This document shows positions 2,092 to 42,800 of a DNA stretch of 64,000 bases, piece after piece. The first letter of the stretch is position 1. The number at the start of each line of letters is the position of its first letter. The stretch is from the UHGV virus genome UHGV-2031204, one strand, 5' to 3'. The translations under genes and the position numbers were made by a program. This DNA comes from a virus. The notes under the pieces were generated by a model, which had not been told where the DNA came from, did no database searches, and saw only the letters and a program-made list of their open reading frames with translations.

Positions 2092-5000
2092 CTAAGTACG
2101 ATCCCCTAACTGCTTCCCGTTAAGTTCTCGTTTCAGTACAGCCAAAATCCACTTCCACGCTTTACTCGTGATGTGGTACGGATTGCGTTTCTCCATTAAG
2201 AACTGACTTTCGCCGCTACGGAGTTCGAAGCTCTGCGCATTGAGTTGGTCTTGACGAACACCGTTCTCGTCAGTGACATCTAACGAACAGGTAAAGTTAA
2301 GCTCGTAGCCTTCAGGATTATTACCCGGTGGTTCTAAGACAATATAAATGTCCTGCCCTACACGTTGGTCCTTTGGCGTAAGGGTAACTGCTTTACCTGT
2401 GTCCGCGTTGGTCGAAAGCGCAAACGGTACGCTATCGATAGCTGATACATACGCGTCCTTCCCAGCATCACCGATAATCACCTTACCCGGCCAGTTACAC
2501 TTCACCGTTCCTGTCACTTTTGCAACACGGTACTGCTGTTTATCAGCACCTTGTGCAAAGCGTAAAATGAGTTTATGCCGATACCGGTTTGCGGCAACTT
2601 TGGATGTACTCCACTCATTGTTCCAGGAGGCATGAAGTTCACCTTTCTTGGCCATCAAAGCACCACGAGACAGCTTACGTGGGAAGAATTGTGCCGGAAG
2701 TTGCCCTTCGTGGGAAATCGCTACACTCCCTTGTCCGGTTGGAAGTGCTATTGTTTCCGTAGGGCAATAATTTAACTCGTACACGTGTGTTGTAGGATCG
2801 ATCAATTTCTGATAGTAATCACCGTCCTTACTGTCCGCTAACCAACCAACGGAAGAATCCGTATACGATTCAAACAGTGAACGTAAATAGTGATACTTAT
2901 CGATATCGATGTTGCCCGTTTTTGGATCGATCAGTGCATGGTTAATAGTGAGGAAACACTTCTCACTCAAACCATTAAACGCCAGCCCCACACCGTCACC
3001 GGTAAAATAGTCTACCAGGTCAAATGGAAGCGTCATTTCTATTTGTCGCAGGTTGATAGTCGTTGAACCAAACTGCGAAAAAGATAGCGCTAAACGAAGT
3101 ACACGAGTATTAACATTATAACGATAACGAATCATCCCACGCGGCGCATGGTTCGCGGAGATCTTATCACCGTTTGCACCCCACCCAATTAAATCGAGTA
3201 TTTCGGCGTTTGCTACTTCACCATTAAACAAAACGTCTTTAGTCGTGACTTCAACTGACGTTTCCCTTCCGGCATCCATCAACATCGAACCGTTATTCAA
3301 CTCGAAGCTCTTGTGCCAAACTTCAGAAGTCGAACCAGCACCTACACCCACCTTACAAGTTTTACTAGTAAGGTTAATACGCACATAACGGCGTCCCACT
3401 GTACCGCCCTGCGAGCTTGCACACAAAATAAGATCAGGTGCCGCAGACAGTGCCTTGGTCCCTCCAATGTCATCAACATCGAAAACGAATGAACCTTCGA
3501 ACGTTGGTGCGTTATTTTCCTTCGGGTTAAATGGCGTAAACCAACAATAAGGCGTCGCGCCCTCGGTTGAGAAAATCAACTCTAAGTCAGATTTAACATT
3601 TAATCCGTGGGAATAAGAAAAAAGACCGCGACTTAAGGTACAGAGCGTTCCACCGCTTCCGCTACCTAACGTTTTTCGATATATTAAAGCGCGGGGTTCT
3701 GGGATAGCACGGTTTAATAACGGCAACCGTGGGTTATCCGTTAACGCCCAGTCTACAGAACTGAGTCCGTGCGCTTTGCGTGTGTCAATATGTTCACTAA
3801 CCTCGGTACTTTTCCCGAAATCAAACGTGGTTTCAAAACTCACGGTTTTATTCGAGTAAGATTCACCGGCAACAATATCAACGTAGCCAATATATCCGCG
3901 CTCAGGGTCAACTGCAATACTCTGAATTGGCTCAGTACGCGAATACAGAGAGCCTGTGAGCATGTTAACGTACAGATAATGACGAATGCCTACGTGTGTT
4001 GTAACGAACTCTTGGAGAAGCTCTACGTGCGTTTCAGGACCACTGAAATAAACGGGGTAGTCACCGTCGTAAATTTCGAATTGCACCGCTGCGGATTTAG
4101 CCGTGTCGCTACACTCAGCTTTAACCGCTACGGTGTAGTTTTCAACGTCTGCTGATGTTTCATACACTGCAACAAGCGGAGACTGGCCTGTGGCTGCCTG
4201 GATACCGTTAATGTAAACTGTAACCGGGCCACCCCCTGCGGCATAAACCCAAAGCTTCGGCTGGCGTGCTCTTACCCGCGTTTTTGCCAACACAGTAACA
4301 ACTGACTGGTCACCCATCTGTGAGGCAGTTTTACCTACCGGAACAGATTGGAAACCCATTAGTGGTGGTTCTTCAATACCTGTCCAGCTAATGCCCTTAC
4401 CAGCACTCACTTTCCCCGTAGGCCAAGTCGTCTCAATTTGGTTGTTCGGTGAGAACCAGTTAAACATCGGTGTAGTTTGCAGGTCAATCGAACCTGTAAC
4501 GGCGCTATCAGCTTTCGCGCCGTTCAGCAAATAGAAATATTTCAAATCTTGAACGGAGATTGCCGTACCCTGGCTATTAAAGCGCCAGTCTGCGCCTTTT
4601 ACCGCAGCGAAATCCGTTACCGACCCTTCTTTCGCGTTTGCAATCGCCGCAGCAACCACATCTAAACGCGCCGAAAGTTCTTTTAAAATGTTCGGCACCA
4701 CTGCACGGTTTTCAACCAAACCGTTCTGGTTAGTTGCGTAACGACCGATACCGTAAACGGATTGCGAGGCTTTATAAATGCCTAGTTCCGACCAATCGTG
4801 GTGGTGGCCTGCATCCGCTAAGCCGCTAAGTGCCGCATTTAACTCGGTAGACAACGGCTTGTCAACGTCTGCGGTGTTATCCGCTTGCCCTAACCCCAGA
4901 TCAGCTTTCGTGATTGTCCTGGAGCCGTCGTTCATCGGCTTACCGTTAATCATGGTCGTTTTAGCCACATACCCCGATAGGTCGGTCGAGTATGGTGCTA

Positions 5001-6294
5001 ACGAAGCCGGAGTTGCAGCAACCCCAGTCGTTTCTGTACCTTTACCTGTTTTAAGTTTAGCGACGCCTTTTTCGGCGGTTGTCGCTTTTGTTGGGTCGAT
5101 AGTCCCCACGATAGGGTCGGCGCGAGAACCTTTACCGGTAAAGCTAATCCCATTACGGCCTTCAATGTACACCTTCGAGTCATCAGGGTCGCCACCGCCA
5201 CCAGAACCCGCATCTGGATCTTGTTGGTATTCCATCAATGTCGTGGTAGTCAGTAACGGGTTACCGTTCAGGGTGAGTTTGTTCATCCCTAAAGCATCGC
5301 CTGTTGACTCGATGCGTAATGTGTTTTTACCGGCACGCCAATTAATGTAACGTCCTGCACCTGTGCCTTCCAGATGTCCTACCGCTAATACCACAGAACC
5401 GTTGGATTTTAACGTAAAACCATCGTTGGCAAAAATGATTTCTGACTCACCGTTTTTCGAACGGAACTGTGCGCGGTTTCCTGACACCGTACAGTTAAAC
5501 ACGCCCCGTACTTCCGAAGAAATCCAGTGAGAGATATACGTGTCGATAACCGACTGCGGTAAACGAAACGCTTTCAGCTCATCCGTCAGTGCTTTCAACT
5601 TTAACCCGTACGCCATAAAGGTGTCGGGGGTTTTCAAGTTAACAGGATGCGCGTTAATCTGCGCGGATGTGGTTTCGTGCGGGTTCTTCGCTGCGATGTG
5701 TGCCGGGTAGTTAAATGCTTCGATTTCTTTACCCAACGCAGTCACTAACGCTTTAACTTCAGCTAATTTGTCTTTAATTAACTGGTTAGCGTCGTCGGTT
5801 TTCAATTCAATATCGTGAACTGCCGACGCTAAATATTTTTTGTTCAGCAAATCCGCCCAGGACGTTGCTGCTGGCGTCGCTGGATATAACGATGGTCTAC
5901 CGTCTAATAACAACCAGTCAGCACTGACTGGGTTATTCAAATATTTCACCAGTTCATCAAGAATATCAACGAACGGGTCGTAGAACGTACCACCGAGCAT
6001 TTGTCCTTCAAAGGTTACGATGCCTTTGATGGATGGGTTGATAAGGTGTACCCCACAATACACGTTGGCTGCTACCGAGTCATCCAGTTCCGTCAGCTGA
6101 TATTGCAGTTCGTAGTCCACCCCACGACTCAGTGGGGTGGTTGAACCTGGTTGTCTGACGACCAAATCTTCAAAGAACGGGCGGTGGTCTAAAATCACCA
6201 CCCGATCGTTGTTGTTCTCTGACCCGATGATACGCTCCTCTAAGAAGTGATTCTCGGCTTTCGTCCCCCGAGGATCGTAAGGATACGCTTTCAT
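2092..6294 (-). CDS. tail fiber protein (~1400 aa)
   Basis: Long ORF in track (2092..6297); likely ATG at 6294 with AAGGAG RBS 9 nt upstream; Gly-rich linkers (SGGGGDPDD), AATPASL fiber motif, beta-rich Thr/Ser/Gly/Asn composition. Confidence 0.7.
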   Translation of the reverse strand: MKAYPYDPRGTKAENHFLEERIIGSENNNDRVVILDHRPFFEDLVVRQPGSTTPLSRGVDYELQYQLTELDDSVAANVYCGVHLINPSIKGIVTFEGQMLGGTFYDPFVDILDELVKYLNNPVSADWLLLDGRPSLYPATPAATSWADLLNKKYLASAVHDIELKTDDANQLIKDKLAEVKALVTALGKEIEAFNYPAHIAAKNPHETTSAQINAHPVNLKTPDTFMAYGLKLKALTDELKAFRLPQSVIDTYISHWISSEVRGVFNCTVSGNRAQFRSKNGESEIIFANDGFTLKSNGSVVLAVGHLEGTGAGRYINWRAGKNTLRIESTGDALGMNKLTLNGNPLLTTTTLMEYQQDPDAGSGGGGDPDDSKVYIEGRNGISFTGKGSRADPIVGTIDPTKATTAEKGVAKLKTGKGTETTGVAATPASLAPYSTDLSGYVAKTTMINGKPMNDGSRTITKADLGLGQADNTADVDKPLSTELNAALSGLADAGHHHDWSELGIYKASQSVYGIGRYATNQNGLVENRAVVPNILKELSARLDVVAAAIANAKEGSVTDFAAVKGADWRFNSQGTAISVQDLKYFYLLNGAKADSAVTGSIDLQTTPMFNWFSPNNQIETTWPTGKVSAGKGISWTGIEEPPLMGFQSVPVGKTASQMGDQSVVTVLAKTRVRARQPKLWVYAAGGGPVTVYINGIQAATGQSPLVAVYETSADVENYTVAVKAECSDTAKSAAVQFEIYDGDYPVYFSGPETHVELLQEFVTTHVGIRHYLYVNMLTGSLYSRTEPIQSIAVDPERGYIGYVDIVAGESYSNKTVSFETTFDFGKSTEVSEHIDTRKAHGLSSVDWALTDNPRLPLLNRAIPEPRALIYRKTLGSGSGGTLCTLSRGLFSYSHGLNVKSDLELIFSTEGATPYCWFTPFNPKENNAPTFEGSFVFDVDDIGGTKALSAAPDLILCASSQGGTVGRRYVRINLTSKTCKVGVGAGSTSEVWHKSFELNNGSMLMDAGRETSVEVTTKDVLFNGEVANAEILDLIGWGANGDKISANHAPRGMIRYRYNVNTRVLRLALSFSQFGSTTINLRQIEMTLPFDLVDYFTGDGVGLAFNGLSEKCFLTINHALIDPKTGNIDIDKYHYLRSLFESYTDSSVGWLADSKDGDYYQKLIDPTTHVYELNYCPTETIALPTGQGSVAISHEGQLPAQFFPRKLSRGALMAKKGELHASWNNEWSTSKVAANRYRHKLILRFAQGADKQQYRVAKVTGTVKCNWPGKVIIGDAGKDAYVSAIDSVPFALSTNADTGKAVTLTPKDQRVGQDIYIVLEPPGNNPEGYELNFTCSLDVTDENGVRQDQLNAQSFELRSGESQFLMEKRNPYHITSKAWKWILAVLKRELNGKQLGDRT

Positions 6295-6307
6295 CAAAAA
6301 AATCTCC

Positions 6308-9300
6308 TTAATCGCGAATGATTACCGCCTGCACTTTATTGTTGGTGTCGATAAACGACATTACGCGCTCCTTGTTAAGATAAGGAGGTATCGGTAACGC
6401 AGCGTAATCCGCCAGGTTGTTATTAAATTCAGTTGCCACTAACGCATTAAGCGTTTCGGGGTCTGAACTGACACCGGTCAAATCCATAACGCGCACACGA
6501 TTTAATGAGGAATAGTTGCTAATATAGTCTAACAACGTACCATAGACTTTATTCGCGGTTGCGCTATCTGCCGTAGAACGGATGTTGGCACGAACCTCAT
6601 CCTCATAAAGTCCCCCTAAACCGTAGTAAATAGGGGTATACGGATCGTTAACGATAGGTGCGATATTGAACCCTGTTAAACGGTCAGTTAGAGGGATTTT
6701 CTGCGTAGCTCCCCCTGCTGCCGTGCAGCTTACGTATTTATCTGTCGCAGATAAAAACACCACGATGGTATACGTAGTGCCCGCTAAGGTCAATGTTGCG
6801 TTAAACGTTATTGCGTTATTTGCAGCACGGGTGTGGGTAAACGTTACGTCAGGTTGTAACGTATTCCACGGCGCAGGCGTAACACGCTTCGTTGGTGTGA
6901 AACCTAACACTACCGATTTCCCGCTACCGAAGTTCAAACCGAACCCTGCGTAACAATATTCACCGTTGCTGTCAGTTAAACGATAACCACGAGTGATAAG
7001 TAACGACAACCGCATAAACTCGCCGTCGGTGTTTTTCCAACAACCTAAAACAGTTTCTAACACCGTGCCAGTTTTTGCGTTGCTTTCTGTTTCCCAACTT
7101 ACCCGCATTCCTGCGTTCTTAAAAGCTGGGAACGTGTTGTGGATAAACCCGTGTAGGTTATCGCTTACTCCTTTCGCGTCAAAAATCCACTTGGATGCAA
7201 GCTGGTCGTATTTCACCCCGTCTAAAGCTTTATACTGCCCCCCGGCAACATAACGCCAATCTGCTTCACCGCGTACTACTGCCTGGAGTCCAGAAGCCCA
7301 GCAAGGCGCGCCTACCGTTAAGTTAGCTAACCCAAGCGCTGCACGTGACGCGGTGCGTTGAATGTGTGCGTTGTCATCGGCCTTATGATCTTTCAGTTCA
7401 CGGAAATCACCCAACCGTGTGACATTACGCATCTCCGTAACGAACACCTCAGAAATGTCGTTAACACCAATCAACCCTACACGCGTCATGGTATCCGTTT
7501 CAGCCTGACTGTAGCTGTCGTGGACAATATACTTCGCTTTGTTGTCAACAATATCAACAAAAATCCCTGCGTAGATTTCTGTATTCAATTTCGGAAAACG
7601 TTCACTGACGTTAATCGTCATCAACGGAACGTCGTATGTTTCACCACCGATAAAATACGTTGAAGCTGGAAGCGTGACCAGAATTTTGTCTTTGACCGTA
7701 AGGTCTATTAAGTCGTTACCAGACTCACCAAAACGTATAATGTCAAGACGTGCCTCCGAGTCAACACCGCTGACAGCGCGCTCCAATTTTTCAATCTGAG
7801 AAGTCTGCGCCATTACCACACTCCCATCGAGTGCTAAAGTCGCATCATCCACATCCAGACCAAATTTAATCAGACCACGTTTCGCGGTGGTTGCGTTTCC
7901 AGTACCAAAAGCGGTAAACGGGTGTTGGTGAACTTTAGGCGAGTATTTATCTAACTCCGCACGTTGTGCTGTAGAAATCGGTAAATCGACATCGGGCGTA
8001 TTCGCAACATTACCTAAACCAAAGGTAATCTTATCGATAGTAACCGAGCTGGTAAGTTGCATGTCGTTAATGTACGATTTAACTGCAACTAACTTACCGG
8101 TGAACTCCGCATCGAGTTTTTCAATCAGTGCTGGCGTTGCTGCAAGGTTTTCAGCGGTACCGAACTCATCGGTCAACTGCCAAGCTGCCAGAGTTGTTGT
8201 ATCGGTCGCGGTAGGAAGAATAAAGGTCGCTACGAACGGCGAGGCTTTTATCCCGCTACCGGTGATCGTAACCGTTGTTGTCGAGTTTGCGTAGAATAAA
8301 CCTGTACCACCTGCGGTATTGCCTGGCAGATACGGGGCTACGGTGGTGGGGTCTAAGAGTTTTTTACCACGCCACAACAATCCTCGGTCATCGGGGTATA
8401 GCACAAGCTGGTTAGTACCTGCTTGGAACGTTACGGGGTTGTTACCCACGTTAACATCAGTTGAACCTTGGCCAATAAACTTAATGGATTTCGGATCAAC
8501 AACAAACTGAGCGCCTAAACGTGTCTCGTCAACAACATCCGGTGCTTTCTTAATGGTAACCGTGTTACCTTTGTTTTGCGAACTAATGGTAACGGCGTCG
8601 GCAACATTATTGATCAGCGATTTAAAGTGGTGCTGATTCTCTAATGCTTCTAACGCAGCGTCCATGTTATTGAAGTTGATCCGACCGCTATACGTTTTAC
8701 TGTTTACGGTAATAACGACGTCAAACACATTCCCTGTACGCTTCAGTTGAAAACGTAGCGTAAAATCCCCATCCGGTATTGCCGGGTTAGGAGCTTGTGA
8801 AATATACCGAACTGCCGGTACCGGACTACCGTAACCGTGCAACGCCAGTTCGATAGTAAGAGTACCGGACCAGACTTCACCGGTAATCTCTACGTACTTA
8901 CCGGAGTTACTACCAGGATTTTCGTAGAAACGTAAACCAACCCTACCGACCGCTTCATTACCAGACGCTGTTTTACGTCCAGTAACAATAAAGTCAATAT
9001 CTTGCAGGTTGGCAGGCACCGCATTAAAGTTAGCACTGAAACCGCTTTTCGCTCCTGTATAACGAAGCGCACCGTGATATCTGTGACCACTACTAACATA
9101 GCTTTCGCTAAAATAAGGACTCACGTATTTCGACATCGAGACCGGATCAACTTCCGTCGTGAACGAAGTAAAACCCGGAAGTGTGGTAATCGTGCCGTTA
9201 ACGTTCTTGCTCGCCGATTCACGAAGCAGTTTTTTCTGTGCGGTTAACGTTGCTTGTGTTGGGTACTTAGCATTAACGTAATCCGTTAACTGCTGTTTCG

Positions 9301-10630
9301 TTTTCCCGTAAGCTAACGCGGCATCCGACGCAATACCATTCAGCTCTAACGCACGGATCGGACCCCACGTATCGGTGTGCGGGTTGTCCTTACGTGTAAC
9401 GTGTTCGTGTGCAGGCGCGTTACGATACAGCTGCTCAACTAACTGATGGTATTTAACTATTAACTGGTAAACATCGTTATCGACGTCAGGTTCTGGTGCG
9501 CCGGGTAAAGAACGAATTTGAATATAATCATTTTCGGCCGCATACCAGTTTAGATTAATGTTCGTTTTAAACTTCAACCATTTAGCAACATCCGTTTTCG
9601 AATACCCTGCCGAGAACTCATCAGGCGGCGTATCGACGTTGAATGTGTAATCCATGGTCTGTTTATTTGTTTTTACTACGATGACGTAAACACCGTTTCC
9701 GGGTTGACGGGTTACACTAAAATCGATATCGTTTTTTAACTCATCGTCAGTTAAACCGTTGATTAACGTATAATCGTAGTTTGTTGAACCGCTACCAATA
9801 GCGACCGTTAAGACCAGTGAGATTTTGCGCTGTTTTAGCTGCAGCCGTAGAATACTTGCACCGCCGTTAGCATAACAGAGCATCCAATCGATCTGTTCGT
9901 TTGGATTCAATTTCGTCATGTCTGGCAGAATAGCAGGAATTCTGTGTTTCACTGACAGGACGTAGTCGTTAAAGGTTGCAGTTTTATAACTCAAGCTATA
10001 ACGATGACGGGTAGTGTTGTAGGTGAAGCCACCTTTATTGTCGTATACGGCATACTGCTCGGAAGTGATAACCTTGCTATTAGCACGGTATTCCAAATCC
10101 AGGGTATTGCGTGCGATGGGGTTAAGCCGACTCACGACTTCCCCTAACGAATCGCCTAATCCAGCAATAGCCTGCATTAATTCCAGTTCACCTTTCCAAT
10201 TCTCCCAATCGAACTGGATATCAACCGGCGGAAAGTAAACGTCCCCGATGACGGTGTCCCACTGACACGCAGACGGGTATTTATCTTTATTGAGTTCGCG
10301 TTCTGCGGTAATCTGTTGTTGGGTAGCCTGACCGCAACCAACGGCGTGGTAATCTACCGTAAAATTCGATTTGTATTTGTCATTAACAATCCAAATCATC
10401 CCGTGAATGAGATAGGCTGTGCGCAACATACCGGTCTCGTACGGGTGTGTAATAATGTAATCGTCGCCTAAGGTCAGTGTTTTGCCGCCGCTCTTGACCA
10501 CCAGGGATGTGGTGAAAAAAGGGGCGTGGGCAGGTACCAACATTCGGTATTTCGTACCAATGACGGCGACCGCTTCACCGGTTATTTTATTCCCCGGTTT
10601 TTTGAAGTGTGGGTCTAAGACGACAGCCAT
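6308..10630 (-). CDS. tail fiber protein (1440 aa)
   Basis: Track ORF; AGGAG RBS 6 nt upstream of ATG (rev-comp of 10637..10641); LAATPALIEKL fiber motif; Thr/Gly/Ser/Asn-rich; stop overlaps RBS of next fiber gene. Confidence 0.7.
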   Translation of the reverse strand: MAVVLDPHFKKPGNKITGEAVAVIGTKYRMLVPAHAPFFTTSLVVKSGGKTLTLGDDYIITHPYETGMLRTAYLIHGMIWIVNDKYKSNFTVDYHAVGCGQATQQQITAERELNKDKYPSACQWDTVIGDVYFPPVDIQFDWENWKGELELMQAIAGLGDSLGEVVSRLNPIARNTLDLEYRANSKVITSEQYAVYDNKGGFTYNTTRHRYSLSYKTATFNDYVLSVKHRIPAILPDMTKLNPNEQIDWMLCYANGGASILRLQLKQRKISLVLTVAIGSGSTNYDYTLINGLTDDELKNDIDFSVTRQPGNGVYVIVVKTNKQTMDYTFNVDTPPDEFSAGYSKTDVAKWLKFKTNINLNWYAAENDYIQIRSLPGAPEPDVDNDVYQLIVKYHQLVEQLYRNAPAHEHVTRKDNPHTDTWGPIRALELNGIASDAALAYGKTKQQLTDYVNAKYPTQATLTAQKKLLRESASKNVNGTITTLPGFTSFTTEVDPVSMSKYVSPYFSESYVSSGHRYHGALRYTGAKSGFSANFNAVPANLQDIDFIVTGRKTASGNEAVGRVGLRFYENPGSNSGKYVEITGEVWSGTLTIELALHGYGSPVPAVRYISQAPNPAIPDGDFTLRFQLKRTGNVFDVVITVNSKTYSGRINFNNMDAALEALENQHHFKSLINNVADAVTISSQNKGNTVTIKKAPDVVDETRLGAQFVVDPKSIKFIGQGSTDVNVGNNPVTFQAGTNQLVLYPDDRGLLWRGKKLLDPTTVAPYLPGNTAGGTGLFYANSTTTVTITGSGIKASPFVATFILPTATDTTTLAAWQLTDEFGTAENLAATPALIEKLDAEFTGKLVAVKSYINDMQLTSSVTIDKITFGLGNVANTPDVDLPISTAQRAELDKYSPKVHQHPFTAFGTGNATTAKRGLIKFGLDVDDATLALDGSVVMAQTSQIEKLERAVSGVDSEARLDIIRFGESGNDLIDLTVKDKILVTLPASTYFIGGETYDVPLMTINVSERFPKLNTEIYAGIFVDIVDNKAKYIVHDSYSQAETDTMTRVGLIGVNDISEVFVTEMRNVTRLGDFRELKDHKADDNAHIQRTASRAALGLANLTVGAPCWASGLQAVVRGEADWRYVAGGQYKALDGVKYDQLASKWIFDAKGVSDNLHGFIHNTFPAFKNAGMRVSWETESNAKTGTVLETVLGCWKNTDGEFMRLSLLITRGYRLTDSNGEYCYAGFGLNFGSGKSVVLGFTPTKRVTPAPWNTLQPDVTFTHTRAANNAITFNATLTLAGTTYTIVVFLSATDKYVSCTAAGGATQKIPLTDRLTGFNIAPIVNDPYTPIYYGLGGLYEDEVRANIRSTADSATANKVYGTLLDYISNYSSLNRVRVMDLTGVSSDPETLNALVATEFNNNLADYAALPIPPYLNKERVMSFIDTNNKVQAVIIRD

Positions 10631-10698: not shown

Positions 10699-11961
10699 GT
10701 GACTACTGCTTATCAAGTGCGGCCCGACAGCGCTTTTGGCTTCTCTCGAGAGTCCCGTACCTGGGGAGCCATCGATGTCACGCAACCCTTAAATACGTTG
10801 TGTTCAGACTACCACACCTTTGAGATCGGTTTAAGTGCACTTGGTAAAGACTATACGTTAGTCAGCCAATACCATCTTGCCGAACTACAAAACCGAACAG
10901 ACACTTTACAAGATTGGTTAAATGAAAAAGCCGGAAACGTCATCCCCACTCTAAAAGCCGGATTGCCGAAACTGGAATTCAGTTGGGCGCATTACCAATC
11001 AATTAATGCCGATGTACCTGTCGAAACGTACCTGTGTCCGCCGGGGTACCACCACAGTCAAGATTTCAGCTTAGACGATGCTGATGACGTTGTCGTCGTT
11101 TGTGAGGACAAGTGGAAGGACAAATACCGTAATAGTGTACTGTACAACATTAACGGTCAATGGGTACCGCATCAGACAGATACCGTAGGTGTCCGATTAC
11201 CCGGGGCCGGTAAAATCGTACGGAGAGCCTGTACGCCTGATATCGGCTGTATGGTTTTTGGTCAGTTAGGGAATGTTAAAACTTACCCCATTGCCAACCT
11301 TACCCTAAACAAGCTCGACACTACACGTGACTATTACTCCACGTTAATGATTTCGCTGCCCGAATCTATTACGGGAAAAACGGTGGGTTTCGTCATCGGT
11401 GGACTGTTACGTTGGTTGCCTCCGGGCGGTTATTTCTCCGACCGTGCGATCATGATTTCTTTGCCGAATTTTGATCTTGCTCGGACCGTTCTAGAAACCC
11501 GTCGCTATTACGACTGGGATGCCATCGGTGTGGGGGATTTATCAACGCCTACTAATGTCCAACGCATTCGCAACCCCGAAACATTAAAGGCGCTTTTACT
11601 CCACGAGTCTTCGTTTATCTTTACGGTAGATAACCCGTATTTAGAAGAAGAGGTTGTGGGTGTATCGCATAACGCAGTTTGGGGACGTTGTTATCTCAAG
11701 GACCCTAGCGATCCTGATTCTGAAAAACCATTAGGGTACTTAAATAATCGCTTCGGGAAGACGGTGGGCTATTGGCCTACATGGGAGGAGGGTGAGTGGG
11801 TATTTAACACCACCGAATTCGACAGTCAAAACTACGTCTTTCGTGAAGCCCGGTGGTATAATCAGAAGAAGATTAACGACGCGCAAGCAATCGTCGGTCC
11901 ATTCGGTCCCTGGGAAAAAGTGTATTTAGAAATGCATCGCTTTAGAGCACGAAAAAAATAA
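10699..11961 (+). CDS. hypothetical protein (420 aa)
   Basis: Track ORF, GTG start with AGAGGA RBS; divergent from fiber gene; followed by hairpin terminator. Confidence 0.55.
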   Translation: MTTAYQVRPDSAFGFSRESRTWGAIDVTQPLNTLCSDYHTFEIGLSALGKDYTLVSQYHLAELQNRTDTLQDWLNEKAGNVIPTLKAGLPKLEFSWAHYQSINADVPVETYLCPPGYHHSQDFSLDDADDVVVVCEDKWKDKYRNSVLYNINGQWVPHQTDTVGVRLPGAGKIVRRACTPDIGCMVFGQLGNVKTYPIANLTLNKLDTTRDYYSTLMISLPESITGKTVGFVIGGLLRWLPPGGYFSDRAIMISLPNFDLARTVLETRRYYDWDAIGVGDLSTPTNVQRIRNPETLKALLLHESSFIFTVDNPYLEEEVVGVSHNAVWGRCYLKDPSDPDSEKPLGYLNNRFGKTVGYWPTWEEGEWVFNTTEFDSQNYVFREARWYNQKKINDAQAIVGPFGPWEKVYLEMHRFRARKK

Positions 11962-27660: not shown

Positions 27661-27700
27661 CCCCTTACCCTATACGGAGTAAGGGGTACTTTTATTTTCA
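27661..27700 (+). terminator. intrinsic terminator
   Basis: Stem CCCCTTAC/GTAAGGGG followed by TACTTTTATTTT. Confidence 0.6.
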
Positions 27701-37689: not shown

Positions 37690-38178
37690 ATGAACTTAAA
37701 TCATAACTTCGATATTCGTGACACCGATTTCGTACATGAATTTCTCAATAACGGAACGCGTGTAAGAAAAGAAATTGAAGAAAAGTTGACTCCGTTAGTT
37801 GTAGACACTCCCTGGATGGCGGACTACGCCGCGTCCTACTTTTCTTCTCAGAGCTTATTTGGATACATATTTATCATACTTGACTTCTTCGATCCATCAA
37901 GCAAGCGCATAACAGAAACAGGCGTGCGGCAACGCCTACGCCATGGTCGCAACGAGTTCTTAAAGAAAGTTTCTGATGCGTACCACATGGGACGATTCCC
38001 TACCCCGCTAGTCCCTTATACAGAACCGGAATGGGAAAAATTTTATACCCGGATTTGGGTTGAAGACTCTCTCTTGAACGAAATCGTAGAAATCATCAAG
38101 CGTAACGAAAACCAACTTGCTCTGCAACTATGGGAGTGGCTAAAAGCTAACTATCCCGATTACGTCAAAATAGATTAA
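37690..38178 (+). CDS. hypothetical protein (162 aa)
   Basis: Track ORF; terminator after stop. Confidence 0.5.
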   Translation: MNLNHNFDIRDTDFVHEFLNNGTRVRKEIEEKLTPLVVDTPWMADYAASYFSSQSLFGYIFIILDFFDPSSKRITETGVRQRLRHGRNEFLKKVSDAYHMGRFPTPLVPYTEPEWEKFYTRIWVEDSLLNEIVEIIKRNENQLALQLWEWLKANYPDYVKID

Positions 38179-38183
38179 TAGAC

Positions 38184-38216
38184 ACCCTAGCTTCGGCTAG
38201 GGTTACTTTATTTTTA
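38184..38216 (+). terminator. intrinsic terminator
   Basis: Stem ACCCTAGC/GCTAGGGT, loop TTCG, then TACTTTATTTTT. Confidence 0.6.
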
Positions 38217-38237
38217 ACCATTTTAGGAGAATAAACC

Positions 38238-39164
38238 ATGTATTTGTACAAAAGTAAAAAAGTAAAAGGTATTAAAGACTGCCTTAGACAAATGGGGTCT
38301 CAGCATCTTGAAAATGTCATGGAAGAAAACCGAATAAAGGAAAATCCTGTCTCGAAATGGATAAAAAAGAATCGTAAGCATTTAACTAATGCCTTTATAC
38401 CCTACGACGCTGAGTTAGGTCTTAAAGATCCCCGTTCCCTTCACGCTCAAACATTGGCAATTGGATGGCTATACGGTGGTGCTTCCTTAATATCCGATCG
38501 AGCACTTAGAGAACTTGTTTTCGAGACTGAGATGCCCAGTAAATTCCCTGAAGAATGGTTAGACTTTATACCAACTTGGACTGTAGCAATCGATGTAGGT
38601 AAAGAAGATGAGACTTTCTTTCTCGGTTATCGAAAAAATGGGAATAGAAGGTTTATTATAATTGCTACAAATACTGATTACGGGTTAACAGAAGGTGTTA
38701 CCACGATCGCCACCTGCTCGTTAGAGATATGTAGTGTTGGAAACGGGCTTGTTGAAATCGATTATACAACTGGCGTACGGACCGAACAAGAGAAGACGTT
38801 ATGGCTATCATTGGCCAAAACCGCCATATCGTTGATATTTCTCTGTACGCTAATCCCGCCCAATCTCAGAGGGTCTTTCAATGACATTAAGTTCAAAGAA
38901 ATCAAAAAGAATGGTAGCATAAGTCACGAAATCAAACCTCGTGAACGTGACGTTAAAATAGACATCACGCCAGGACAAGTGAAATATCTAAAGGGATTTA
39001 ACACCGACTTGAAAACCATGGAAGGTATCAAACACGCCAAGGCTGCACATATCCGTCGCGCACACTGGCGCAGATATTGGGTCGGTCCAAGAGATGGGGA
39101 AAGGAAGAGAAAACTTTACTGGATTCCGCCTACATTTGTCCGTGGCTACGTACCCCACAATTAA
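38238..39164 (+). CDS. hypothetical protein, R/W-tail paralog A (308 aa)
   Basis: AGGAGAA RBS; C-terminus AAHIRRAHWRRYWVGPRDGERKRKLYWIPPTFVRGY parallels next ORF. Confidence 0.6.
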   Translation: MYLYKSKKVKGIKDCLRQMGSQHLENVMEENRIKENPVSKWIKKNRKHLTNAFIPYDAELGLKDPRSLHAQTLAIGWLYGGASLISDRALRELVFETEMPSKFPEEWLDFIPTWTVAIDVGKEDETFFLGYRKNGNRRFIIIATNTDYGLTEGVTTIATCSLEICSVGNGLVEIDYTTGVRTEQEKTLWLSLAKTAISLIFLCTLIPPNLRGSFNDIKFKEIKKNGSISHEIKPRERDVKIDITPGQVKYLKGFNTDLKTMEGIKHAKAAHIRRAHWRRYWVGPRDGERKRKLYWIPPTFVRGYVPHN

Positions 39165-39189
39165 GCTAAAAGTGTTTAGGAGTATTAAA

Positions 39190-40089
39190 ATGACAACGAA
39201 TAATAGACTTTACGGGAAAGCGCTAAGACGCATGAGCGAACAAATAGAAAAGGCGTACCAAACAATTCACGGATTAGATCAGTGCCGTTTTATTCGGTTC
39301 ATTAACGAGCATAAACGTCAAATACCCGTAACGTTTATGCCAGTTAAAGATCCGACCTATCGTGAGTATGGCGTTACCGAACAGATTCCCAGACTGATTA
39401 AGCAGTCCCTGGGACTAGGATGGCAATACGCTGCTGTTGAAATCATCTCGGATGAAGAACTGATGGCACTCTTAGCAAAAACTGAGAGACTAAAAAATAT
39501 CCCGTACTTCTGGATAGAAACCATCCCTTCATTTACTTTCTCGGTTACCGTAAATCTCGACGAATGCCCAATCACGTTATTTATCGGAAGACGTCTTTAC
39601 GAAGGTGAAGAAGTTCTCTTTGTGATGTCATGCGAAGAACATGACGAGACGGTATACATGGAGTTTGAGATTTACACGATCGATAAAAGTAATGATGATT
39701 TCGTGGAGTTAAAGCCGCTCCTTACTTCGGTTAAGGAGAATCAACGACTACTCGACGCGGTCTACATCGGGCTATATCTTTCGTCACGAATTAAACGAAC
39801 TGAGCGCGAGAAGAAAGAATTTCGCGGAAGGTCCATTCGTTATGTTCCTGATACAGAGATTCGCCCACGTAGTGAAGCGGTCGTTTTAGACGTAAGTCCG
39901 GTACAATGGGAAGATATAGAACAACAACGCAAGGAAGGACACGAGGTTTGTTTGGCGATTTATTGCTCAGCACATATCCGTCGTGCTCATTGGAAGCGTG
40001 TATGGTGTGGTAAAATGTCAGAAATGCGTTGGCGCGAATGGCGATGGATAGCGCCGAGTTACATCTCTGGATTTTATCGTGGAAAATAA
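39190..40089 (+). CDS. hypothetical protein, R/W-tail paralog B (~299 aa)
   Basis: Track ORF 39094..40089; AGGAG RBS precedes in-frame ATG 39190; C-terminus SAHIRRAHWKRVWCGKMSEMRWREWRWIAPSYISGFY. Confidence 0.6.
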   Translation: MTTNNRLYGKALRRMSEQIEKAYQTIHGLDQCRFIRFINEHKRQIPVTFMPVKDPTYREYGVTEQIPRLIKQSLGLGWQYAAVEIISDEELMALLAKTERLKNIPYFWIETIPSFTFSVTVNLDECPITLFIGRRLYEGEEVLFVMSCEEHDETVYMEFEIYTIDKSNDDFVELKPLLTSVKENQRLLDAVYIGLYLSSRIKRTEREKKEFRGRSIRYVPDTEIRPRSEAVVLDVSPVQWEDIEQQRKEGHEVCLAIYCSAHIRRAHWKRVWCGKMSEMRWREWRWIAPSYISGFYRGK

Positions 40090-40096
40090 ATAGTTT

Positions 40097-40122
40097 ACCC
40101 CTAGACCGTGTGGTCTAGGGGT
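40097..40122. terminator. bidirectional intrinsic terminator
   Basis: Stem ACCCCTAGACC/GGTCTAGGGGT; long T-tract downstream on + strand; between convergent stops 40089 and 40135. Confidence 0.6.
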
Positions 40123-40134
40123 AACTTTACTTTT

Positions 40135-40890
40135 TTATTTTTTGTTTGCCTTAAGCGCTTTTAAGCGTTCGGCAGTAACGTTCAGGCATTCGATTAACTC
40201 GTTGACCTGTTTCATGAACAAACCGAACAGCTCCACCCAATCAGAAGCAAAATCCAACATCATCGTCAGTTCTTTTGCTACATTCGGATGAATGTTTTGT
40301 TCGGACAAGATTTCTGACGTAGTACGAATAGACTCGATTGACTTGTCGATGTTCGTCCGTAGACGTTTTGTGATTTCAACGTTCAGTGCCTTAGCACGAT
40401 TGAACGCAACATCAATTTCAGACGCACTGTGATACGTCTTCTCAATTGGACGCTGGTCAATAACGTTGTTGGTGTACGATTTCGCTAATAAGTTAACCAG
40501 GTCTTTCGGGTTAACATTACGTAACGGTAAATTAACATTTTTGTAACGGAAACCAATCGGTAATGACAGTACCCCCACATCATGTGTAAGGGCCGAAAGT
40601 TGTTTATCGACCGGCAGCAGAATACCCGTATAGATGTTTTGCAGTGAACTCCATACAGATTCTAAGCGGTTCAAGTGATCCATCACGTAGGTATTAAACC
40701 CAGGTGGAACGATAACCAACATTCCCGCAAAGTGTAGGAATTTTTCTTGTTGCATCCACTTGGAAACGTCCGACATCTCGTCATAAGTGGTTAATGCAAT
40801 CTCTTGTTGAGGGCCACTGAACCCTTTCGGTAAGATTGCAGACGCTTTAGCGGCGAAGCTAGATAACGCTGCAAGTGGATTTACATTCAT
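40135..40890 (-). CDS. hypothetical protein (251 aa)
   Basis: Track ORF; single inverted gene in plus block. Confidence 0.55.
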   Translation of the reverse strand: MNVNPLAALSSFAAKASAILPKGFSGPQQEIALTTYDEMSDVSKWMQQEKFLHFAGMLVIVPPGFNTYVMDHLNRLESVWSSLQNIYTGILLPVDKQLSALTHDVGVLSLPIGFRYKNVNLPLRNVNPKDLVNLLAKSYTNNVIDQRPIEKTYHSASEIDVAFNRAKALNVEITKRLRTNIDKSIESIRTTSEILSEQNIHPNVAKELTMMLDFASDWVELFGLFMKQVNELIECLNVTAERLKALKANKK

Positions 40891-41303: not shown

Positions 41304-42800
41304 ATGGCAGGCCCAACTAAGCAAGTTATCGGTGAAGTAATTCGTCCACGTTTTAACGTTTACACCATCATGGATCATGCCTTAGGTAACTACGAAAAAG
41401 GTGAAGATGGTTTGTACTACCTTAACGGTGGTTTTGCCCACATCATGGGTTTCGCAGGTCGCGGTAACACTTTTAAATCCACCTTGTTAGATTTCTGTAT
41501 TTTCCAAATCCTGCAACGTTATAAAGCAGAGTGGGGTTCTAAGTACGATACAGAAGTGTCAGCCGCCCTCGATCGTTTAGAAACTGGGTACATCTCTGCC
41601 ATGAACGCCAACGGTATCGACGACGGAACGTCCGTACTGGAGCTTATCCACGAAGGTCGTTATAACCTGGTCGGTTCTGACGTAATGCCTGGGGAACAGT
41701 ATTACAGCGATTATATTCGTGATGAAGTTGAAAAACGCTTCAAGCAGTATATGTCTGGTAAAACCCGCGTAACGCCGTTCCCCGATCCGGTTCGTCGTAA
41801 GTTAAAAGAAATCCTGGACCCCTGGCTTTATTCTATCGACTCCCTGTCAGAGTGGCATTCCAGTTCGCTGGAAGACAAACACGCAAAAACTGATATTGGG
41901 GATTCTGATCAGAACATCCTGAATGCCCACGATGCCCTGCAAAAGTCGAACATGATGAGCCGCTGGCCGTCTGCGTTTGCACGCGGTGGTTTTTACATGG
42001 GCTTCGTGGCACAGATGGCCGATGACTCTGGGAAAGCGATGGCAGGTGGCCGTCAGGCACAAAAAGCAAATGCGAAAATTCTTGACGATGCCAACGACGA
42101 TTTAAAATTCGCAGGTATTCCTCGCCGTCAGCTTAGCTTTTTAACAAACTCTTTTATCGTCGCGACGAAATCAGGGGAACTGAAGAAAGACCAGAGCTAT
42201 AACGCGCAGACCGGTGTTAACGAAGAACTTTATCCGACGTCACGCTCTAAGGCGATGAATGCTTCGGTAAACGACTTGAAGATTATCACCTTTACTCAGT
42301 ATCGTGCGAAGGGCGGTCACACTGGTGTGAAATTCCAGATGATCTTCTCTCAGGAAATGGGTCTGTTATATCACCTGAGCCTGTGGCACTATTTAAGCGA
42401 CACACTGAAGAAGTCAGACTTTGGTTTCACGTCAAGCGGTAGCGGCGGCTCCATCAAAGAACTGGACATTCTACCTGGTGTGAAATTCCAACGCACGACA
42501 ATCCGTGATATGATTTCTGATAACGCGCGCTTACGTCGCGCTTTAGAAATCACGGCGGCAATCGCGTATATGCAAAACAACTACCATCGTCTTGAAATGA
42601 AGTATCATCTCAGCATGGGTGAGATTTACAAAATGATTGACGAGAAGTGGGACTGGAATGAAATTCTGGACAACACGGTAGAATACTGGATGTTTAAAGA
42701 CCAGGAAACCAAAGGTGGTAAACGTACATTGACTGCACGTACTATTCTGGGTATGGCTGTCGATGGGCTAGAACCGAAGTTCCTGACGAAAAAGAAATAA
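41304..42800 (+). CDS. RecA-fold ATPase, UvsX/RecA-like (498 aa), tentative
   Basis: P-loop-like FAGRGNTFKST resembles UvsX Walker A (AGPSKSFKSN); downstream LYSIDSLSEW resembles RecA/UvsX Walker B (VFIDSLG); larger than canonical UvsX. Confidence 0.4.
   Translation: MAGPTKQVIGEVIRPRFNVYTIMDHALGNYEKGEDGLYYLNGGFAHIMGFAGRGNTFKSTLLDFCIFQILQRYKAEWGSKYDTEVSAALDRLETGYISAMNANGIDDGTSVLELIHEGRYNLVGSDVMPGEQYYSDYIRDEVEKRFKQYMSGKTRVTPFPDPVRRKLKEILDPWLYSIDSLSEWHSSSLEDKHAKTDIGDSDQNILNAHDALQKSNMMSRWPSAFARGGFYMGFVAQMADDSGKAMAGGRQAQKANAKILDDANDDLKFAGIPRRQLSFLTNSFIVATKSGELKKDQSYNAQTGVNEELYPTSRSKAMNASVNDLKIITFTQYRAKGGHTGVKFQMIFSQEMGLLYHLSLWHYLSDTLKKSDFGFTSSGSGGSIKELDILPGVKFQRTTIRDMISDNARLRRALEITAAIAYMQNNYHRLEMKYHLSMGEIYKMIDEKWDWNEILDNTVEYWMFKDQETKGGKRTLTARTILGMAVDGLEPKFLTKKK

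Follow-up and report, generated by a model that had tools for sequence, protein, structure and literature searches.

The 64,000-nucleotide stretch of the virus genome UHGV-2031204 analyzed here (the window) raises the question of what is encoded by two adjacent genes between positions 38,238 and 40,089, whose products of about 300 amino acids were noticed in a preliminary description to resemble each other and to end in a basic, Trp-rich tail. The results make it probable that the two genes form a tandem, co-transcribed accessory cassette of the AcrVA2/FinQ family in a jumbo phage related to SPN3US and Asesino, encoding two target-specific mRNA silencers, a function inferred by homology. The two genes are:

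38238-39164, + strand: copy 1, AcrVA2/FinQ-family protein of 308 amino acids
39190-40089, + strand: copy 2, divergent AcrVA2/FinQ-family paralog of 299 amino acids, assigned by paralogy, the match to PHROG 6160 (E=5.5e-20) and a family hidden Markov model (HMM)

The open reading frame (ORF) containing copy 2 spans 39094-40089 on the + strand and opens within copy 1. Its true start is almost certainly the ATG at 39190, because an AGGAG motif (39178-39182) lies upstream and the position matches the start of the orthologs. The paralogy noted in the preliminary description was borne out by BLASTP (E=6e-21, 25% identity across 305 columns), the two proteins being collinear from end to end and containing all of the motifs quoted there. 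The motif GW.Y....[LI]ISD..L extends from W77 to L90 in copy 1 and from W78 to L91 in copy 2, IP..T is present as IPTWT (I111-T115) and IPSFT (I112-T116), respectively, and AHIRRAHW[RK]R.W.G...W ends both copies, the complete tails being AHIRRAHWRRYWVGPRDGERKRKLYWIPPTFVRGY in copy 1 and AHIRRAHWKRVWCGKMSEMRWREWRWIAPSYISGF in copy 2. Identity to copy 2 is distributed unevenly along copy 1: it reaches 41% in the last ~40 residues (263-304) and 33% in residues 65-125, which hold the GW.Y...ISD and IP..T block, and drops to 11-23% in the N-terminal helices (1-64) and the central part (126-262). In a six-frame scan of the window, neither H.R..H[WYF] nor a match to the family HMM was detected outside the two ORFs. 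In comparison with the closest strain (contig L019, 97% DNA identity), the ratio of nonsynonymous to synonymous substitution rates (dN/dS) was 0.08 for each copy, and both are therefore live genes maintained by purifying selection.

By sequence comparison, both copies belong to PF26125 (AcrVA2-like), the family of AcrVA2 and FinQ. A profile built from 11 jumbo-phage homologs matched AcrVA2 (PDB 7CI1) with E=6e-9 over residues 65-317 of 323, and copy 1 by itself matched 7CI1 via its tail (E=1.7e-4). A broad-family HMM, which was built from 118 non-jumbo family members and contained no jumbo-phage sequence, gave scores of 122.8 bits for an AcrVA2 fragment, 54.9 bits for copy 1 and 26.3 bits for copy 2, the last of these matches falling on the C-terminal module; the best of 100 shuffled sequences reached 2.6 bits. 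In a look-up of contig annotations, the orthologs of copy 1 and of copy 2 both carried the label PF26125 "AcrVA2-like", including the 294-amino-acid copy 2 orthologs of contigs L007-L010, and the precomputed PF26125 domain was present on every database homolog. An exhaustive search (E<=1e-3) returned 5,996 family representatives at 50% identity. FinQ was reached from the family member P0010 with E=1e-8 over 78% of its length, in 547 plasmid records. The statement that no family could be assigned was hence not borne out: both proteins fall into PF26125, for which solved structures exist (7CI1/7CI2).

Other searches were less informative. Against PHROGs, the sole match was family 6160, to which no function is attached. 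No match was obtained for either copy or any ortholog in Pfam-A, the copy searched evidently lacking the PF26125 model, and none for the two copies in NCBIfam. In PADLOC, copy 2 had a weak match to Csx19 (E=0.016) as its only result and copy 1 had none, and neither a megablast comparison of the locus with GenBank phages nor a full-text literature search for "PF26125" returned anything. Two observations on other family members were made along the way. A member in Erwinia phage RisingSun (NC_042018.1, 128272-129135) is annotated as 'putative mycothiosynthase', which is probably a mis-annotation, and a 556-amino-acid protein from a Bacillota metagenome-assembled genome (P0066) carries PF26125 together with PF00589 (phage integrase) and may be a fusion with a tyrosine recombinase.

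Residue conservation was read from a family alignment of 129 sequences and is concentrated in two blocks of each copy:

38454-38600, + strand: N-proximal block of copy 1, amino acids 73-121, with W77, D87, P104 and P112-x-W114
39024-39149, + strand: C-terminal beta-module of copy 1, amino acids 263-304, with the core H271-I-R273-R-A-H276-W at 39048-39068
39409-39558, + strand: N-proximal block of copy 2, amino acids 74-123, with W78, D88, P105 and P113 in invariant or near-invariant columns
39949-40074, + strand: C-terminal beta-module of copy 2, amino acids 254-295, with the core H262-I-R264-R-A-H267-W at 39973-39993

The sole invariant columns are W77, P104, H271, R273, H276 and G283 in copy 1 numbering, equivalent to W78, P105, H262, R264, H267 and G274 in copy 2. 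D87, P112 and W114 of copy 1 are near-invariant, and the Asp (D87 in copy 1, D88 in copy 2) is kept in at least 90% of the sequences. The alignment thus shows both copies to retain all of the family-invariant residues, including the H/R/H triad and the N-proximal Trp, and in addition the Asp. H271, R273 and H276 of copy 1 align with H286, R288 and H291 of AcrVA2, and W77 and D87 with AcrVA2 W79 and D89. H286, R288 and H291 are required for the translation-dependent destruction of Cas12a mRNA: in the H286A, R288A and H291A mutants, loss of the mRNA was abolished while Cas12a binding was retained, and W79A and D89A weakened the effect on Cas12a mRNA (bioRxiv 10.1101/2022.11.29.518452). As judged by this alignment, the two motifs singled out in the preliminary description correspond exactly to the residues functionally tested in AcrVA2.

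The AlphaFold model of copy 1 showed the three-domain fold of AcrVA2 (7CI1/7CI2), its tail being modeled as four beta-strands (271-273, 276-282, 290-296 and 299-302) with a predicted local distance difference test score (pLDDT) of 90-93 for the block. In the copy 2 model, the order of secondary-structure elements parallels that of copy 1, and pLDDT rises to 94 in the C-terminal block. In the structural comparison, which the preliminary description had proposed, the AcrVA2 fold was recovered for copy 1, and no significant Foldseek match was obtained for copy 2 (pLDDT 68). According to the models, the tail is a folded beta-module and not a loose basic peptide. Within the family, it is also the best-conserved part and critical for function. 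The weight that the preliminary description gave to the tail was justified. Interaction of the tail with nucleic acid would be compatible with what is known of the family; for the membrane interaction that was also considered, nothing was found in support.

The genome context places the pair in a jumbo phage. The UvsX-like protein of the window (41304-42800) shares 81% identity with its counterpart in Salmonella phage SPN3US, 80% with the one in Erwinia phage Asesino and 27% with phiKZ gp152, and the window also encodes RNase H-like and SbcC-like proteins, a split RNA-polymerase beta subunit, giant virion proteins and a tail fibre. Judged by this gene content, the source is a jumbo phage related to SPN3US and Asesino, of the phiKZ-like group with a split RNA polymerase, and the pair shares the family trait of being encoded on a mobile genetic element.

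Among related phages, a single homolog occupies the same slot in Erskinevirus (Asesino), Machinavirus, Alexandravirus and some Seoulvirus (EC001, SaP7). The tandem pair was found only in the lineage of the window, namely in the metagenomic contigs L007-L010, L014-L016 and L019, which make up 4 of 79 IMG/VR loci. In a neighbour-joining tree, the jumbo-phage versions formed one clade (bootstrap 100/100), within which copy 1, copy 2 and the SPN3US/Asesino/Machinavirus group remained an unresolved trichotomy (50/100 for sister copies). SPN3US gp213, assumed from synteny to be a homolog, was ruled out, as the AcrVA2-like gene is absent from the SPN3US record.

Close relatives differ strongly at this locus. 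The SPN3US reference (NC_027402, locus L013, 186719-186782) is devoid of an AcrVA2-like gene. Compared with it, EC001 (L001, 4749-5735) carries a clean 987-bp insertion that consists of the upstream hairpin and the ORF, with flanks that are 97-99% identical, and in SaP7 (L003, 2805-3795) the AcrVA2-like gene likewise appears as an indel of ~1 kb; taking EC001 and SaP7 together, the flanks are 93-99% identical to SPN3US. The EC001 and SaP7 alleles share only 40% protein identity, although both phages belong to the same species as SPN3US. Of the records with a UvsX-like protein 80-90% identical to that of the window, only 6 out of 26 gave a homolog match. In the closest relatives of the window, the UvsX-like protein is 96% and the head protein 92% identical, compared with 68-90% for copy 1 and 62% for copy 2, and the dN/dS of 0.08 for the copies stands against 0.01-0.02 for the neighbouring core genes. 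Relative to L014 and L008, the synonymous divergence (dS) of copy 1 was 0.47-0.55, about half of the 1.06-1.18 seen for the head-protein and UvsX-like genes beside it, which indicates mosaic recombination at the locus. The locus is thus dispensable and hypervariable among close relatives, and this pattern marks a conflict gene that is exchangeable and can be dispensed with, and not a structural or core regulatory gene.

These data bear on two other explanations. Regulation of the phage's own genes by the pair, for example an early-protein shut-off by co-translational mRNA decay, would be in line with its position within a replication and recombination block (RNase H, UvsX-like) and with the apparently vertical inheritance of the gene at a syntenic site in the jumbo-phage clade. 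Its absence from SPN3US and most records of the species group of that phage, and the swapping of very different alleles, render this quite unlikely, and it also fits poorly with the folded invariant H/R/H module. Alternatively, the proteins could be generic nucleic-acid or membrane binders acting through the basic tail, or structural or scaffold paralogs of the virion. The tail is indeed rich in Arg and Trp, and the adjoining gene encodes a homolog of the essential head protein SPN3US gp214. We consider this the least credible of the explanations, given its poor fit with presence/absence, allele swaps and the folded invariant module. The gene is dispensable for virions, since SPN3US makes virions without it. 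Membership in a virion structural or scaffold family, which according to the preliminary description would have reduced the pair to routine virion paralogs, was not found for the pair, and the family that was found is one of counter-defence and conflict between genetic elements.

Variation at this site extends beyond the pair. The 162-amino-acid ORF directly upstream (37690-38178, + strand), for which there was no PHROG match, shows 39-67% identity where the UvsX-like protein shows 96% and is more variable than the pair; in L019, where the DNA of the pair is 97% identical, the identity of this ORF is only 42.6%, which looks like an allele replacement.

The organization of the locus was read from a scan for terminator-like hairpins and from ribosome-binding sites (RBS):

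38184-38215, + strand: upstream hairpin ACCCTAGCTTCGGCTAGGGT followed by the T-rich tract TACTTTATTTTT, 5' boundary of the putative cassette
38225-38229, + strand: RBS AGGAG of copy 1, read from the sequence
39178-39182, + strand: RBS AGGAG of copy 2, read from the sequence, seven bases upstream of ATG 39190
40095-40145, no strand assigned: hairpin (13-bp stem, T-tracts on either strand) separating copy 2 from the convergent head gene

The head gene on the far side of this last hairpin (40135-40890, - strand) is the homolog of SPN3US gp214 (phiKZ gp153) mentioned above. The scan detected no hairpin between copy 1 and copy 2. Only two CCTAG..CTAGG hairpins are present in the window, with 0.17 expected, and both flank the pair. 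The upstream arrangement recurs in the relatives L008 and EC001, and an equivalent of the downstream hairpin is common to EC001, SPN3US and L008. Because hairpins flank the two genes but are lacking between them, and AGGAG precedes each gene, the pair reads as a bicistronic, co-transcribed unit. A cassette-specific sigma-70 promoter was not supported, as the promoter scan was at chance level (14 found, 13 expected). As moreover the upstream hairpin lies only ~20 nucleotides from the RBS of copy 1, no cassette-specific promoter or timing is claimed.

An intergenic element, in which TAC-TTT(T)AYTTTT comes after a GC-rich hairpin with GGG/AGG at its end, occurs repeatedly in the window, with 10 matches to GGKTAMYTTTAYTTTT at 1.15 expected. 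Sites of the hairpin element are located at 11953 (-), 27684 (+), 38200 (+), 40119 (+), 49179 (+), 54235 (-) and 54268 (+). At 27684, 38200 and 49179, the RBS and ATG of the next gene are no more than ~20-25 nucleotides away, which leaves little room for a promoter, and the element may be a terminator, a processing site or a promoter. No tRNA genes were detected in the window by ARAGORN. Another paralogous pair is found at 2092-6297 and 6308-10630 (both - strand), where two adjacent virion structural genes of ~1,400 codons cross-match PHROG 8078/7557.

What the pair may do can be approached from the published biology of AcrVA2 and FinQ. AcrVA2 recognizes the N-terminal LSKT peptide of Cas12a. 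FinQ lowers the levels of F tra mRNA; it and ~1,800 orthologs, some of them on "megaphages", have the C-terminal H-x-R motif in common while their N-termini diverge, and most members of the AcrVA2 family occur where Cas12a is absent (bioRxiv 10.1101/2022.11.29.518452). A 2026 review and meeting abstracts from 2025 repeat this picture of AcrVA2 and stress the mRNA-decay step as unsolved.

By analogy, the variable N-terminal and middle parts of each protein would serve to bind one particular target polypeptide, probably while it is leaving the ribosome. Destruction of the mRNA under translation would then be triggered by the conserved H/R/H beta-module at the C-terminus, as reported for AcrVA2 and Cas12a, and the same kind of mRNA destruction is suggested for FinQ on F tra transcripts. 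The division into variable recognition and conserved effector parts is drawn from the identity between the copies, which is 41% in the tail and 11-23% in the N-terminal and central parts, and it matches the variable-N-terminus, conserved-C-terminus pattern of the published AcrVA2/FinQ comparison (bioRxiv 10.1101/2022.11.29.518452). The two diverged paralogs would most likely recognize two different targets, or might possibly form a heteromer. Defence proteins of the cytoplasm that are inducible or short-lived would be candidate targets, as would other proteins of the host and those of rival plasmids or phages.

Could the target be Cas12a itself, so that the pair would consist of genuine anti-CRISPRs silencing type V-A systems in the manner of AcrVA2? 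Family and catalytic-like residues are common to both, as is the fold in the case of copy 1, and huge phages have been reported to encode proteins clustering with AcrVA2. This is nevertheless very unlikely, because the identity to AcrVA2 outside the tail is ~17%, the target-recognition parts being the least conserved, and because the family is mostly found without Cas12a. The cultured relatives infect Salmonella, E. coli and Erwinia, hosts that are not known to carry Cas12a. In addition, phiKZ-like phages shield their DNA from DNA-targeting CRISPR nucleases, as has been reported, which likewise speaks against Cas12a as a target.

A different class of targets would apply if the pair acted as FinQ-like weapons against co-resident mobile elements (conjugative plasmids, prophages or co-infecting phages) and not against host defence. 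FinQ is a homolog that lowers F tra mRNA, and it is often encountered on the conjugative plasmids of E. coli, Salmonella and Shigella, the hosts of the relatives. This explanation shares its mechanism with the proposed mRNA silencing and differs only in the class of target; we regard it as unlikely. A more specific form of mRNA silencing can be offered tentatively, as a possibility that we would not yet favor: the pair may be a two-headed, nascent-chain-directed silencer of a nucleus-forming jumbo phage that acts against non-Cas12a targets, either proteins of rival elements or defences in the cytoplasm that are directed at RNA or translation and can still reach such phages, with the hypervariable N-terminal and middle regions as determinants of specificity that are exchanged as alleles. 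If this is true, the presence, absence and allele variants of SPN3US, EC001 and SaP7 would constitute a genetic system for finding new targets and for studying the mRNA-destruction step.

Several points weigh against target-specific mRNA silencing by two AcrVA2-like proteins. The broad-family HMM score of either copy derives almost wholly from the ~40-residue tail, and a profile of the copy 2 orthologs alone does not reach AcrVA2. The family membership of copy 2 is transitive, by way of its paralogy to copy 1, the PF26125 labels of its orthologs and the motif on which it rests. The copy 2 model is of low confidence (pLDDT 68, predicted template modelling score 0.63) and gave no Foldseek match below E=0.1. 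The mechanism of AcrVA2 itself stands on a preprint and meeting abstracts, and for the jumbo-phage members a function is predicted by homology. Gene-wide dN/dS below 1 provides no direct signal of positive selection. Finally, blocking the synthesis of new target protein would be odd in a phage that is strictly lytic, except for targets that are induced or short-lived.

Earlier descriptions already cover the family, its structure and signature residues and the fact that it occurs on large phages, and the pair does not reveal a new kind of system. New are the assignment of jumbo-phage genes annotated as "hypothetical", and in one case as "mycothiosynthase", to the AcrVA2/FinQ family, the lineage-specific tandem pair, and, within a single phage species, the variation in alleles and the cassette-like indel. 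The family is thus carried as a swappable cassette by enterobacterial jumbo phages that are in culture and genetically tractable, and natural plus/minus and allele-swap strains are on hand for working out its other targets and its mechanism.

Of the known systems, AcrVA2 is so far the sole protein of a bacterial virus for which destruction of a specific mRNA, following recognition of the protein made from it, has been reported. It is an anti-CRISPR of a temperate Moraxella bovoculi prophage (PDB 7CI1/7CI2), whereas the genes of the window reside in a lytic jumbo phage, and its N-terminal helices and central sheet are strongly diverged in the two copies. Unlike AcrVA2, these genes are not located beside an AcrVA1-like gene, they form a tandem diverged pair, and their hosts are not expected to carry Cas12a. 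FinQ, which inhibits fertility and is encoded by IncI1 and related plasmids, is a member of the family by the link through P0010 and has a similar, enterobacterial host range; it is plasmid-borne and acts on F-plasmid transfer genes, whereas the pair is phage-borne. Closest in setting are the single-copy PHROG 6160 homologs, which occupy the same slot upstream of the reverse-strand head gene, the 99-amino-acid gene and the UvsX-like gene and are bracketed by hairpins in the same way. They are annotated as hypothetical and are 21-31% identical to the copies of the window, and in contrast to these single genes the lineage of the window alone possesses two.

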